Notes: a model not told the origin generated them from the sequence alone. Positions 2,292 through 6,557 are shown, numbered from the stretch's first letter. The stretch: 64,000 nucleotides of DNA from Candidatus Melainabacteria bacterium 17Bon1m (GCA_032128875.1 JAVLKG010000005.1:192001-256000); one strand, 5' to 3'. Numbers and translations are program-made.

Positions 2292-2901
2292 ACAGTCTCC
2301 TGTGATTTTTAGAGCGACGAAAACCCACCTGCGCGCTTGCCTCGCACATGTGTGAACTCGTTTATGCTCCGGTTATTGGTAGGTGAAAGACCTTGCAAAG
2401 CCAAGCCTACCGCTCAGTTTTGCAAGCTTCTGATTCCCAATCTGCAGTACCCGTGTGTCTTCCCCTCGCTTGCGCGAAAAGAAAGAGAGCTAGAAAGTGG
2501 CAAGGGTGAGCGCTTTCTTGGCAGGTATTTACGGACTAGGTCTTGAATAAAGAACAGAAGTATTTTGAAGCTAGCAAAGCTGCTCATGCCAACTCAATGC
2601 CACTGGGTGGCAACTTTGCACCTAAGTGTGGAAAACACGATGCGCGCTTTACAATTGGCATTGCCAAAAGCGTCAGCCTGCCGGGTTTTTCAATCTGCCT
2701 GCGCTAATGCCGCAAGCGGTTGCATTGCAGCAACATCTTGTCGTGAAGCACTTTTCTTCCCTTTCTCAGTGAAAGGTTTCGCACCTAACTTCGATCAAGC
2801 CCGACCAAAAAGCCGTAATATATGGGCTCGCTAATGTCCGGTGCCGCCTTCTGCAGTGCCGAACAAAACTCCGTCGGGCGAAATCACAAAGGTCGGCAAT
2901 C

Positions 2902-4164
2902 ATGAAAGAAAACGCGAGACGCGCAATTGTGCTGGTTATTGATGGCTGCGGAATAGGCGCGGCACCGGATGCGGAAGCTTTCGGCGATTCGAACAGCTGC
3001 AACACCCTAGCTAATACCGCACAAAAACTGGGCGGATTGAAGTTGCCTACAATGGAAAAATTAGGCTTGGGCAATATCACCGCTATCAATGGTGTTAAGC
3101 AACTTGACCAGTGCTTCGCACGCTTCGGCAAGCTTGAAGAGTCCTCCAACGGAAAGGACACTCAAACAGGGCACTGGGAGATGATGGGACTGGTAAGCGA
3201 GCAAGCGTTTCCCCTGTACCCTAATGGCTTTCCCCAGGATTTGATCGACGCTTTCATAAAAGAAACCGGCTGCAAGGGCATACTCGGAAATAAGCCTGCA
3301 TCAGGAACCGACATCCTCGAAGAACTCGGTGAAGAGCACAAGAAAACTGGCTATCCGATTGTCTACACTTCCGGCGACAGTGTTTTCCAAATCGCGACCA
3401 ATGTGGAAACCACCGACCTACCAACTCTTTATCGTTGGTGCGAAACTGCCCGCAAACTGCTCGATGGACCGCATCGCGTCGGTCGAGTCATCGCTCGACC
3501 ATTCAAAGGCAGCAAAGGCAATTACACAAGACTGGGTGGAGATCGCCGCGATTACGCTGTTCCACCGCCCAAAAAGACCTTGCTCGATATTCTGCTCGAT
3601 CAAAAAATCGGCGTATACGGCATCGGTAAAATCGAAGATATCTTTGTGAAACAGGGCTTGAGCCATGCCAAACACACAGGCACCAACGTTGAAGGTTTGC
3701 AGTTGACTCTGGATGCCATCACCGGCTCAACCGACTTGAGCTCTTACAAATTGGGTCCGAATATGCCCGACGACATTCAGATGATCTTTACCAACCTTGT
3801 TGATACTGACTCGCTTTACGGGCACAGACGCGATGTTGCAGGCTATGGCAAAGCACTCGTTGAAATTGATCAGTGGTTGGATCGCATTGTGAAAGCCATG
3901 CGCAGAGACGATTTACTGATTATTTCCTCCGACCATGGTAACGACCCGACCGCTCCCGGCACGGACCATACTCGTGAGTTTGTCCCATTCATCGGCTACT
4001 CTCCCGCCTTCATCGAGGGCGACAAGCCGATGGCTCAAAACAAAGCAAACGTTGGAACTCGCGCAGGGTTCATGGATATGGCAGCTACCGTTGCCGATTG
4101 GATGGACATCAAATGGAGCGGGCTCGGCACCTCCGTATTGGAAGGACAGGGAGCGAAAGTCTAG
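2902..4164 (+). CDS. deoB: Phosphopentomutase
   Basis: Motifs VIDGCGIGAAPDA, GKDTQTGHWE, YTSGDSVFQIA, RVIARPF, NLVDTDSLYGHRRD, SDHGNDPT, TDHTRE. Confidence 0.97.
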   Translation: MKENARRAIVLVIDGCGIGAAPDAEAFGDSNSCNTLANTAQKLGGLKLPTMEKLGLGNITAINGVKQLDQCFARFGKLEESSNGKDTQTGHWEMMGLVSEQAFPLYPNGFPQDLIDAFIKETGCKGILGNKPASGTDILEELGEEHKKTGYPIVYTSGDSVFQIATNVETTDLPTLYRWCETARKLLDGPHRVGRVIARPFKGSKGNYTRLGGDRRDYAVPPPKKTLLDILLDQKIGVYGIGKIEDIFVKQGLSHAKHTGTNVEGLQLTLDAITGSTDLSSYKLGPNMPDDIQMIFTNLVDTDSLYGHRRDVAGYGKALVEIDQWLDRIVKAMRRDDLLIISSDHGNDPTAPGTDHTREFVPFIGYSPAFIEGDKPMAQNKANVGTRAGFMDMAATVADWMDIKWSGLGTSVLEGQGAKV

Positions 4165-4174
4165 CTCGGTAACC

Positions 4175-4223
4175 GTAGGGTGACGCCATGCGTCGACCGG
4201 GCAATGCATGGCATCGCCCCTAG
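4175..4223. repeat. GTAG-type REP-like palindrome doublet
   Basis: GTAGGGTGACGCCATGCGTCGACC followed by an inverted relative (reverse complement CTAGGGGCGATGCCATGCATTGCCC). Confidence 0.65.
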
Positions 4224-4268
4224 AAGAACCGCACACAGCAAGTTTATGAAACGTTAGGAGTAACGAAA

Positions 4269-4778
4269 GTGTCAGCAAAAAAACTAATTGATTTCACCGG
4301 TCAGGCTAAGGGTTTCCAAAAGCATGATCGCTTTGACGACAATGTAGTCAACGAGTTGAGAAAAGATGGAGCAGGTGGAGAAGTTGTGGTTATCGACTAT
4401 GCCATCGGTTTAAGCGAACCGGCTATCGTTTCCGATCACTTGAACTTGACCGGTTCGAGCCCTCTTTGCGGACCTAACAACCCAATCGGAGAGCGCTTCC
4501 CGGTGGTTAACGACATTTATGTTTGCGACGATGCGAAGTTGCCGAAAGGACTTCAATCATTGAAGAAAATTGTTATTGCAGGCTTGAAAGACGGCGTAAA
4601 AACCGGCGAAAAGGAACTTGAGCTGATTAAGTCGATGGGTGCGGAAGCCTTTTGTAAGAACGTCGTGCACACGATGATCGTGGCAGCTCATGCTAAAAAG
4701 AAAGTTCTTGCGATTGTTGTTCCGGAAGGAAAAACATTGAGCGCAGACCTTTTGGCTGCGATTGCTGAATTGAATTAA
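4269..4778 (+). CDS. Short, degenerate purine nucleoside phosphorylase-like protein
   Basis: Keeps SDHLNLTGSSPLCGPNNPIGERFP and ELELIKSMGAEA...IVAAHA..KVLAI; lacks GSG, GRxHxYEG, YET, GMST and TN motifs. GTG start with AGGAG RBS. Confidence 0.8.
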   Translation: MSAKKLIDFTGQAKGFQKHDRFDDNVVNELRKDGAGGEVVVIDYAIGLSEPAIVSDHLNLTGSSPLCGPNNPIGERFPVVNDIYVCDDAKLPKGLQSLKKIVIAGLKDGVKTGEKELELIKSMGAEAFCKNVVHTMIVAAHAKKKVLAIVVPEGKTLSADLLAAIAELN

Positions 4779-4779
4779 C

Positions 4780-4804
4780 GGTCGACGCGTGGCGTCGACC
4801 CTAC
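4780..4804 (-). repeat. GTAG-type REP-like palindrome
   Basis: Reverse complement GTAGGGTCGACGCCACGCGTCGACC, near-identical to 4175-4198. Confidence 0.7.
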
Positions 4805-4850
4805 AGAAACTTTCGAAAACTAGCTATTTATCGAACTAAGCGAGGATGAA

Positions 4851-5678
4851 ATGAGTCAAGCAGTTGCAGACAGAGCTGAGAATGCGGTTGCCTATTTGAA
4901 GGACAAAGTTACTGGTATACCGGCAGCAGCAGTGGTTTTAGGCTCCGGTGTCAGTGTTCTGGAAGGGCTTGTCGATAGCAAGAGTTTTCCATTCCTGGAC
5001 GTTTTTGGAATCTCTCCCAGTGTTCATGGACACTCAGGCAATGTCACCGTCGGTCGTTTGAGCGAAGCTGAAGATGCGCCGCTTATAGCTGTTTTCCGCG
5101 GTCGCTTCCATCTCTACGAAGGTCATGACTGGTCTGTAGTCACACTGGCTGCACGTGTCGTCGCTCTCTGGGGCGTGAAGAAACTCTTGTTGACGAACGC
5201 TGCAGGTGGACTCAACAAGGACTATCATGTCGGCGATTTAATGGTGCTCACCGGTTACAGAGACCATCTGAGTCCTGAACTGGCTCAGACGGGTTTGCTG
5301 TCAGCCATCGCAAAGCCGACGACAAAATGCAGCAATGCGCTTAGTGATGAGCTTTTGAAAGTCGGTGAACAACTGGCGAAAGACGACAAAGAGTTTCGCC
5401 CGCTTAGACAGGGCACGTACTGTGCGCTGGCTGGCCCTAACTACGAAACGATGGCGGAAATCGAGATGTTGCGCCGTCTGAAAGGCGATGCAGTCGGTAT
5501 GTCCACTGTTCCTGAAATGCTCGCAGTAGAAGGCACAGGGACAATGGCTGCTGCCGTTTCAGTCATCACCAATGTCTGGCGCGAAGACGAGCCTATGGGC
5601 GGTCATGAGGAAGTTCTCGAAGCTTCGAAGATGGCGTCCAAGAGACTCGATCAGCTCTTCAGAAAAGTTCTCGGTTAA
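4851..5678 (+). CDS. punA: Purine nucleoside phosphorylase, trimeric (PNP-I/XapA) family
   Basis: VLGSG, VHGH, GRFHLYEG, LTNAAGG, GPNYET, DAVGMSTVPE, SVITN, HEEV; downstream of deoB. Confidence 0.92.
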   Translation: MSQAVADRAENAVAYLKDKVTGIPAAAVVLGSGVSVLEGLVDSKSFPFLDVFGISPSVHGHSGNVTVGRLSEAEDAPLIAVFRGRFHLYEGHDWSVVTLAARVVALWGVKKLLLTNAAGGLNKDYHVGDLMVLTGYRDHLSPELAQTGLLSAIAKPTTKCSNALSDELLKVGEQLAKDDKEFRPLRQGTYCALAGPNYETMAEIEMLRRLKGDAVGMSTVPEMLAVEGTGTMAAAVSVITNVWREDEPMGGHEEVLEASKMASKRLDQLFRKVLG

Positions 5679-5862
5679 CGTCTGAAAACTGTTTTTGTTC
5701 TCAAATAACGCCGGTATTTGGATTCGACGGCGTTGTTTGCATTCGACGATGCTGCTTTGTAATTGAAAACAGAGCCGATGATGCCACCAATTACGGTGTC
5801 GTATGTGGTTGTGTCGTCGAACCCTCCTTGGATATACGATATAGAATCGTAGGGGTGGGCGT

Positions 5863-5893
5863 AAAAAACGAATGCCTCAGAACGAGGCATTCG
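5863..5893 (-). terminator. Intrinsic terminator
   Basis: Perfect 10-bp stem CGAATGCCTC-AGAAC-GAGGCATTCG next to A6 (T6 on minus). Confidence 0.8.
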
Positions 5894-5987
5894 CCCGCGC
5901 TAGACCAGTCGCCCGGCATCCGCCACCAAAGGTGACCAATGCCGAGCTCCTGGCTGCACGGTAAAGCTTGACTTGAATCAGGCGCCG

Positions 5988-6557
5988 TTACTGGGTCTGA
6001 TGATCCTGGCAGTGTCCGCAGTTGTTGCAGCAATCGCCGGCGAGGGGCGTTGAGCAATTCCAACAGGCAGGCACCGTCCCCGGAAGATGGTGGTCGTTGG
6101 TGTAGACGACCGGGGGCGTGGTGCTGCGCGCGGCACTTTCCTGGAGCTTCTGCTCCAGCGTGGCGGCGTATGAAACAGGGTCGAGCAGATGGAACTTGAA
6201 CGTTCCGACCACTTGCCCGCCCGCGCTATCACGGCGCACAAGCACCGTCATCTCGCTGGGGAAGGGGTTGCGATTCTGGCTGCGGCTGCCACCAATGAGG
6301 TTGCGCAGCAGGCTGCCAGCGCCGGACGGCTTGGAAGCCGCGGGCACATCGATGGGAGTGGCGGGCTCGTCGAGCGCGACACAGGAAACCTCCTCACCGT
6401 CCACCTCGATGCACGCGTGGAAGCCAGGCTTCATCGCGAACGCGAGCATCTGAGGGATGGTGCCTTGTGGCACGCTGACGAATGTGGTGGTTCCGTCTTG
6501 TTCGACAAACCGATCGAACGTCTTGCGAGCGGTATCACATACTCGGACTGTGATCAT
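5988..6557 (-). CDS. Hypothetical protein with C-terminal Cys-rich zinc ribbon
   Basis: Start moved to ATG 6557 (GGAGG RBS); ends CWNCSTPLAGDCCNNCGHCQD. Confidence 0.75.
   Translation of the reverse strand: MITVRVCDTARKTFDRFVEQDGTTTFVSVPQGTIPQMLAFAMKPGFHACIEVDGEEVSCVALDEPATPIDVPAASKPSGAGSLLRNLIGGSRSQNRNPFPSEMTVLVRRDSAGGQVVGTFKFHLLDPVSYAATLEQKLQESAARSTTPPVVYTNDHHLPGTVPACWNCSTPLAGDCCNNCGHCQDHQTQ

Follow-up and report, generated by a model that had tools for sequence, protein, structure and literature searches.

A loop-less purine nucleoside phosphorylase and a truncated, catalytically dead paralogue that keeps the loop in Melainabacteria

Candidatus Melainabacteria belong to a lineage of non-photosynthetic relatives of cyanobacteria. 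The window analysed here is a whole stretch of 64,000 nucleotides (nt) from one of them, Candidatus Melainabacteria bacterium 17Bon1m (JAVLKG010000005.1:192001-256000; its own genome is called G000 below), and within it lies an operon that opens with deoB and continues with two genes related to purine nucleoside phosphorylase (PNP): a short gene, encoding 169 amino acids (aa), and a long gene, encoding 275 aa (Table 1). The long protein carries the catalytic motifs of a trimeric PNP and has other sequence in place of the loop through which such subunits touch one another; in the short protein the loop is preserved and the catalytic motifs, as far as they can be aligned, are gone. As this complementary pattern recurs in every relative examined, it is not a product of chance, and it raises the possibility that the two proteins act as partners in a heteromeric PNP.

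Table 1. The operon around the paired PNP genes, in coordinates of the window
Feature	Position	Strand	Basis
deoB (phosphopentomutase), 420 aa, first gene of operon	2902-4164	+	NF003766 6.8e-143, above cut-off
REP-like (repetitive extragenic palindrome) 21-nt palindrome, deoB/short spacer; within a longer imperfect inverted repeat, 4178-4219	4178-4198	.	repeat scan
Short protein, 169 aa, GTG start: truncated, catalytically dead PNP-fold paralogue	4269-4778	+	open reading frame (ORF), partial PNP profile match
Retained inter-subunit loop D56-P78 (DHLNLTGSSPLCGPNNPIGERFP) of short protein	4434-4502	+	alignment to solved PNPs
Second REP-like palindrome copy, short/long spacer; perfect 9-bp stem	4780-4800	.	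repeat scan
Long protein, 275 aa: PNP with catalytic motifs, without canonical loop	4851-5678	+	PF01048, alignments
Divergent segment T134-P156 of long protein, in place of canonical loop	5250-5318	+	alignment to solved PNPs
Hairpin and terminator-like site 3' of long gene	5702-5754	+	

The long protein matches PF01048 over residues 27-274 (8.2e-32, 110.9 bits against a Pfam gathering cut-off of 25.1) and aligns end to end with solved trimeric PNPs (8swu at 5.8e-41, bovine PNP at 2.4e-40), though, full-length as it is, it stays below the NCBIfam equivalog cut-offs of NF006054 (196.3 vs 218) and TIGR01697 (181.9 vs 197.1). Its GSG, GRFHLYEG, TNAAGG, GPNYET, VGMSTVPE, ITN and HEEV motifs all fall in matched columns against the solved PNPs, with Tyr as the aromatic residue ahead of the catalytic Glu, and the catalytic and substrate motifs are invariant across the 93 relatives of the long-family alignment. 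After GDLMVL, however, where canonical PNPs of the same class read DHINxxxxNPLxGxN....GxRFPDMS, the long protein reads TGYRDHLSPELAQTGLLSAIAKP, and T134-P156 is nearly without matches to the solved structures. In all 20 Obscuribacterales ORFs of a 30-row alignment GYRDHLxPE....GLL.A...P stands in place of the loop, and the 12 PNPs read from four further families of the class (f4, f7, f8 and f10; families are numbered f1 to f11, G000 belonging to f1) have other variants without it. To judge from its motifs, the long protein would resemble a trimeric inosine/guanosine PNP that falls short of the loop and of the curated score cut-offs.

The short protein has no Pfam match at E<=1, and its only foothold among curated profiles is a partial match to the NCBIfam PNP model (residues 49-150 against profile positions 126-233 of 274, E 1.6e-10), at 41 bits against a cut-off of 218. 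That profile finds no sequence-level counterpart of the N-terminal phosphate-binding part of PNP, and the positions aligned to GPxYET, GMST and TN read DGVKT, CKNV and VP. In alignments to Protein Data Bank (PDB) structures, DHLNLTGSSPLCGPNNPIGERFP matches the dh.nl...pl.gpn...g.rfp of solved PNPs. Nowhere is the short family better conserved than in the loop: an alignment of 84 sequences has 17 invariant columns, 11 of them in the loop (D56, H57, N59, G62, P65, G68, N70, G74, R76 and F77) or just after it (Y84). F77 is what we take, from the alignments and residue numbering, to be the counterpart of mammalian Phe159, and the short protein thus appears to keep the equivalents of both Asn137 (N59) and Phe159 (F77) without an active site to go with them.

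The predicted structure agrees with this picture. An AlphaFold2 model of the short protein, built on the 84-sequence alignment, reaches a pLDDT of 94.2 and a pTM of 0.89 with the loop ordered, and its top Foldseek matches in the PDB are all trimeric PNPs (E 5e-9). VIA-align superposes 163-169 of the 169 residues on trimeric PNPs with Z scores of 15.3-16.9 and a root-mean-square deviation of 2.5-2.9 Å; these structural matches make the short protein a cut-down PNP core, with about 169 of the usual 275 or so residues. An earlier sequence-only reading of this DNA had described a 275-aa PNP with catalytic motifs whose loop after GDLMVL is replaced, next to a 169-aa protein that lacks those motifs and keeps the loop segment. 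Alignments to solved PNPs bear out both descriptions and place complementary retention in the two paralogues.

The pairing extends well beyond the window. When the same 151 genomes of the class were searched with a short profile and with a long profile, both genes were found together in six families of what the sources call Melainabacteria. In f1 the short gene is present in 20 of 31 genomes and the long gene in the same 20, the other 11 having neither; in f2 one genome of two has both and the other has neither; both genes are found in all 12 genomes of f8 and in the single genome of f10. The profile searches gave less even counts in f7 (short in 6/9, long in 8/9) and in f4 (short domain in 20/30, long in 30/30). 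The two f7 genomes that seemed to have the long gene only (G032 and G045) encode a loop-less PNP together with a divergent short ORF just 3' of rsfS (E 5.4e-8 and 6.4e-5). Of five f4 genomes without a short match that were checked directly, four do contain the domain, three as part of an ArgJ ORF (G065, G076 and G130) and one as a separate 116-aa ORF overlapping the start of the ArgJ ORF (G029).

The remaining families provide the complementary case. Matches in f3, f5, f6, f9 and f11 lie solely in ORFs of 255-346 aa that are canonical PNPs, and none of the 151 genomes combines a short-type match with a canonical full-length PNP. PNPs were read directly in f3, f4, f6, f7, f8 and f10: the loop is absent in 12 of 12 from f4, f7, f8 and f10 and present in 4 of 4 from f3 and f6. 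Co-occurrence had been proposed with the sequence-only reading as a way of probing the pair, and the outcome favours it, the two genes being inherited and lost together (20 genomes with both and 11 with neither in f1). Two loci depart from the simple arrangement: at G058:C39:12783-16076 a single short gene is flanked by two long-type PNP genes, and the long gene at G110:C5:419466-420288 is broken across two frames, perhaps through a frameshift or an error of assembly.

Purifying selection on both genes is strong, with ratios of nonsynonymous to synonymous substitution rates (dN/dS) of about 0.03. The comparison of G000 with G011 yields 0.026 (dS 0.71) in the case of the short gene and 0.029 (dS 0.80) in that of the long gene, and the three other pairs with finite dS (1.14-2.69) give 0.027-0.040 for the short gene. 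On this measure, also suggested with the sequence-only reading, the short gene is not decaying (0.026).

The short protein is conserved down to about 40% identity between families, and a word-based search recovered 96 protein clusters of 161-213 aa, save two of 101 and 105 aa, one of which is labelled partial at source. Named members are Melainabacteria or Obscuribacterales, besides a few oddly labelled metagenome bins; most are entered in databases as 'hypothetical protein' and a few JGI records as 'purine nucleoside phosphorylase'. A profile search run exhaustively against 1.84 billion representative proteins returned 2212 matches at E<=1e-3 and just 23 at E<=1e-30, most of the remaining matches listed being roughly full-length PNPs or PNP fragments. 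In a 201-genome sample of the phylum, all matches beyond the class fell in ORFs of 265-467 aa, which are full-length PNPs. A profile search of genome contigs was likewise dominated by canonical PNPs, because the loop pattern is common to both; there, among the loci other than L042, L070 and L071, only L041 is by title and match a clear short-type locus. One protein of 1001 aa (P0127) contains three PNP_UDP_1 stretches (PF01048, 4.1e-71) and may be a covalently triplicated PNP.

Gene order ties the two genes closely in the window's own order and more loosely elsewhere. All 21 f1 and f2 genomes of the class sample that have the pair carry the short gene immediately 5' of the long gene, in the same orientation; in the set of relatives the same holds for 18 of 19, the exception (G001) having the genes at the ends of two short contigs. 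deoB stands upstream of the pair in those Obscuribacterales loci that reach far enough, including the f2 locus L029. Around the short gene in f4, f7, f8 and f10, no deoB or PNP gene was found within roughly 8-10 kb. There the order is Wzy_C - rsfS - short - iPGM in f8 and Wzy_C - rsfS - short::ArgJ in the f10 genome, and rsfS precedes the short gene in three of four f7 loci scanned, rsfS not being found beside the short gene in the fourth (L129). In f4 and f10 ArgJ ORFs of 490-640 aa (PF01960, 1e-102 to 8e-129) have the short domain at their N-terminus, where the short-derived part spans 105-170 aa (L121-L126 and L142-L144 in f4, with L124 in f10). We know of no ArgJ with such an N-terminal extension. 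A search for longer homologues of the short protein gave no fused form and is a weak guide here; the ArgJ fusions emerged by other routes.

Some further features of these neighbourhoods deserve mention. At the rsfS (ribosomal silencing factor)-short loci L127, L128, L131-L135, L154 and L155 the two frames often overlap stop-to-stop, ribF follows the short gene in two f7 genomes, and in G000 an NHL/SGL beta-propeller ORF, not a short gene, comes after rsfS (C2:478165). A functional link of the short protein to DeoB was considered and ruled out: f4 and f7 genomes have deoB at another locus, and two f8 genomes (98% and 95% complete) with a short and a long gene yielded no deoB.

The spacers of the operon hold a repeat of their own. 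As read from the DNA, AGGAG precedes the start of the short gene and GAGGA that of the long gene. A 21-nt palindrome of the form GGTCGACGC-NNN-GCGTCGACC brackets the short gene on both sides, the copy upstream of it being imperfect. These are the only two copies in the window, where 0.05 would be expected by chance, and the 7.55-Mb genome has 92 sites against 0 for a reversed control, which marks the element as a REP-like dispersed repeat. Such palindromes could influence mRNA processing between the genes of the operon. Three sequencing runs labelled as RNA-Seq (X2-X4) were compared with window positions 2500-6100. In each, the operon sits within contigs of 13-22 kb at one flat depth, the longest contigs reach 72-138 kb and the pattern resembles that of a DNA run from the same sample; with contigs so long and depth so flat, the data resemble DNA sequencing and do not show transcription. 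An apparent joint 4222->4779 in these runs was considered as a deletion and ruled out, being the repeat that flanks the short gene on both sides.

The origin of the pair was approached with a 50-row tree. It was rooted on the genome's second PF01048 gene (L009, G000:C2:590428-591144; E 3.3e-43, a 277-aa ORF), which, with motifs judged by eye, looks like S-methyl-5'-thioadenosine phosphorylase (MTAP), a member of the same superfamily; the long protein does not match it at E<=0.001, and it is a separate full-length gene outside the pair. Loop-less PNPs form one clade (SH-aLRT 100), which joins the canonical PNPs of the class with support 84, and the short proteins form another (SH-aLRT 100) on a long branch of 2.12. 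The approximately unbiased (AU) test does not reject a tree with short and long proteins in a single clade, the topology expected from one duplication (p-AU 0.41), nor one that groups all PNP-like proteins of the class (p-AU 0.32). When short and long trees are built separately for one set of 20 genomes, both contain the same families, joined differently and with moderate support. These results would fit one ancient duplication followed by co-inheritance. The sequence-only reading had proposed duplication followed by subfunctionalisation; paralogy with complementary retention stands and a single-duplication tree is tolerated by the data.

How the two proteins might work together is best considered against ordinary low-molecular-mass trimeric PNP (PNPH/PunA, NP-I fold, PF01048), such as the bovine and human enzymes and 8swu. 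The long protein likewise has its phosphate, ribose and base motifs, and the short protein shares its fold core (Z 16-17) and its inter-subunit loop. In the known enzyme, one polypeptide supplies both the active site and the donor loop and assembles as a homotrimer, whereas here the two reside on separate, co-inherited gene products. According to the available portions of a study of the calf enzyme, Phe159 is the sole active-site residue contributed by the neighbouring subunit, and the interface sets the Asn137, Ser142, Asn145, Arg148 and Phe159 loop region against the neighbour's residues 87-91 and 196-205 (PMC9916683). The same portions describe a six-alanine interface mutant that is mainly monomeric, with an inosine activity of 1.4e-4 against 34 U/mg for the wild type, and a human Phe159Ala mutant that keeps the trimer with activity little changed (PMC9916683). 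As far as those portions go, the mild effect of Phe159Ala beside the essentially inactive six-alanine mutant indicates that the whole contact is needed and not the single Phe. The emphasis that the sequence-only reading placed on the donated Phe is accordingly right in one respect, in that Phe159 does reach the neighbour's site, and too narrow in another, its loss changing little and the whole interface being what matters (PMC9916683, in the same portions).

Each subunit of an ordinary trimeric PNP rests its DHxN...GxRFP loop on the active-site segments of its neighbour, a contact needed for activity. In the arrangement proposed here the roles would be divided. The long protein would supply the catalytic residues and the receiving surface, its own donor loop having been replaced; the segments that would receive a loop are invariant in the long family (H87, Y89, E90 and G91; G195, P196, Y198 and E199; E203). 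The short protein retains the donor loop, its catalytic residues being gone, and could dock that loop on the long protein as a canonical neighbour does, stabilising or completing its active site. The outcome would be a heteromer instead of a ring of three identical subunits, and may be a heterodimer rather than a ring, since the short protein is without part of the receiving surface. On balance, that the short protein is a non-catalytic pseudoenzyme kept as a partner subunit of the neighbouring long PNP strikes us as quite plausible, though we would stop just short of calling it probable. The data establish homology, fold, complementary conservation, purifying selection, co-inheritance and operon linkage in one order; binding, stoichiometry and any effect on activity are what we infer. 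A stronger version, in which the PNP homotrimer has been split into a loop-receiving catalytic subunit and a loop-donating dead subunit that form an obligate heteromer, in effect a prozyme of bacteria within the NP-I family, the donor being portable and fused to ArgJ in one family, seems to us somewhat unlikely.

It is worth setting out what weighs against a partner subunit. Within the short family, the loop is shortened in f4 and f8, to DHxNLxGxxPxxxGFxPxTxLY or NPLKGPQF, with the Phe kept. Phe159Ala in the human enzyme, cited above, reportedly has a mild effect. Within the loop-less clade, the replacement segment of the long protein is itself conserved (D138 invariant; G135, R137, L140, P142 and G148 at >=90%) and, in an AlphaFold2 model with a pLDDT of 91.5, forms two short helices (144-147 and 150-154); being conserved and ordered, it may allow the long protein to stabilise its own site or to form oligomers by itself. 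Adjacency of the two genes is limited to the window's order (Obscuribacterales by source names), the short gene lying directly 3' of rsfS and away from PNP in f7, f8 and f10, and one f4 genome with a loop-less PNP (G090, 92% complete) yielded neither a short domain nor ArgJ in a direct check. The ArgJ fusion ties the short module to something other than PNP, and together with the rsfS synteny it hints at another or an additional role. Finally, a mirror-tree comparison over 15 genomes shows no co-evolution signal beyond shared phylogeny: the correlation of short and long distances is 0.81 and falls to a partial correlation of 0.07 given deoB, in what is a weak test.

Several of these points would be natural if the short protein were an independent PNP-derived module with a job unrelated to PNP, such as ligand binding, oligomerisation or docking for other proteins, with a loop kept for its own fold or for another partner and a co-occurrence that reflects no more than a single shared ancestral origin. 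The conserved rsfS-short synteny of f7, f8 and f10 speaks for such a module, as do the consistent fusion to ArgJ, or position directly upstream of it, in f4 and f10, the confident fold predicted for the short protein alone, the lack of specific co-evolution with the long protein and a faster rate of evolution (mean distance 0.70 for short vs 0.49 for long). It would leave unexplained, however, why 11 of 31 f1 genomes lack both genes and none has just one, why the deoB-PNP operon includes the short gene across the whole order, why the invariant part of the family is exactly the PNP inter-subunit contact loop and why no searched genome pairs a short gene with a looped PNP. We regard an independent module as a real possibility, if a rather doubtful one.

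A role in which the short protein binds the long one through its loop without completing it would draw on the same linkage evidence as a completing partner: it could act as a regulator or scaffold, either as an inhibitory cap or as a tether to, for example, ArgJ in f4, with the long protein active alone. The conserved and ordered replacement segment fits a self-sufficient enzyme, the ArgJ fusion would suit tethering, and the REP-like hairpins around the short gene could uncouple its expression level from that of its neighbours. Against this, trimeric PNP needs its interface for activity, on the evidence of the available portions of PMC9916683, which favours a completing role, and no regulatory ligand site is evident in the short protein, its catalytic and ligand-contact motifs being lost; a regulator or tether is in our judgement distinctly unlikely. 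That the short ORF is a functionless, decaying remnant of a tandem duplicate might be suggested by its truncation, its lack of catalytic motifs and its lack of a Pfam match, and is highly improbable: dN/dS is 0.026-0.040 in four comparisons spanning dS 0.71-2.69, the 96 clusters keep their length of 161-213 aa in all but the two of 101 and 105 aa, identity of about 40% is conserved across families and the fold is confidently predicted. A remnant is already contradicted by these data on selection and conservation.

The closest parallels to a partner subunit of this kind come from trypanosomatids, where the available portions of the literature describe prozymes, dead paralogues that activate AdoMetDC, deoxyhypusine synthase and PRMT1 (PMC5201418, PMC3663545, bioRxiv 10.1101/776112). 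As with prozymes, the short protein is an enzyme paralogue that has lost its catalytic residues and is under selection. In the portions of those sources available, a dead paralogue is likewise kept beside the enzyme, a joint active complex being here a proposal. Prozymes, as those portions present them, are eukaryotic and experimentally shown, with activation of up to 3000-fold, whereas the present case is bacterial, involves a truncated paralogue and derives its division into donor and acceptor from sequence alone. Outside subscription journals, no paper was found on such a pair or linking Melainabacteria with purine nucleoside phosphorylase; among the papers listed on a nucleoside phosphorylase heterotrimer, judged by title, or on a PNP pseudoenzyme, judged by title and abstract opening, none looked relevant.

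Whatever its role, the short protein represents a conserved family without a Pfam match in a poorly studied bacterial class, and proteins annotated there as 'purine-nucleoside phosphorylase' may be only part of a complete enzyme. Were the proposed assembly true, it would offer a clear natural instance of evolution from a homo-oligomer to a heteromer by complementary loss and would let the reasons for which trimeric PNPs need an interface be tested directly. It would also carry the idea of a pseudoenzyme activator beyond the trypanosomatid prozymes, into bacteria and the nucleoside phosphorylase fold, and, if the donor is indeed portable, the ArgJ fusion would physically couple nucleoside phosphorolysis to an unrelated enzyme.

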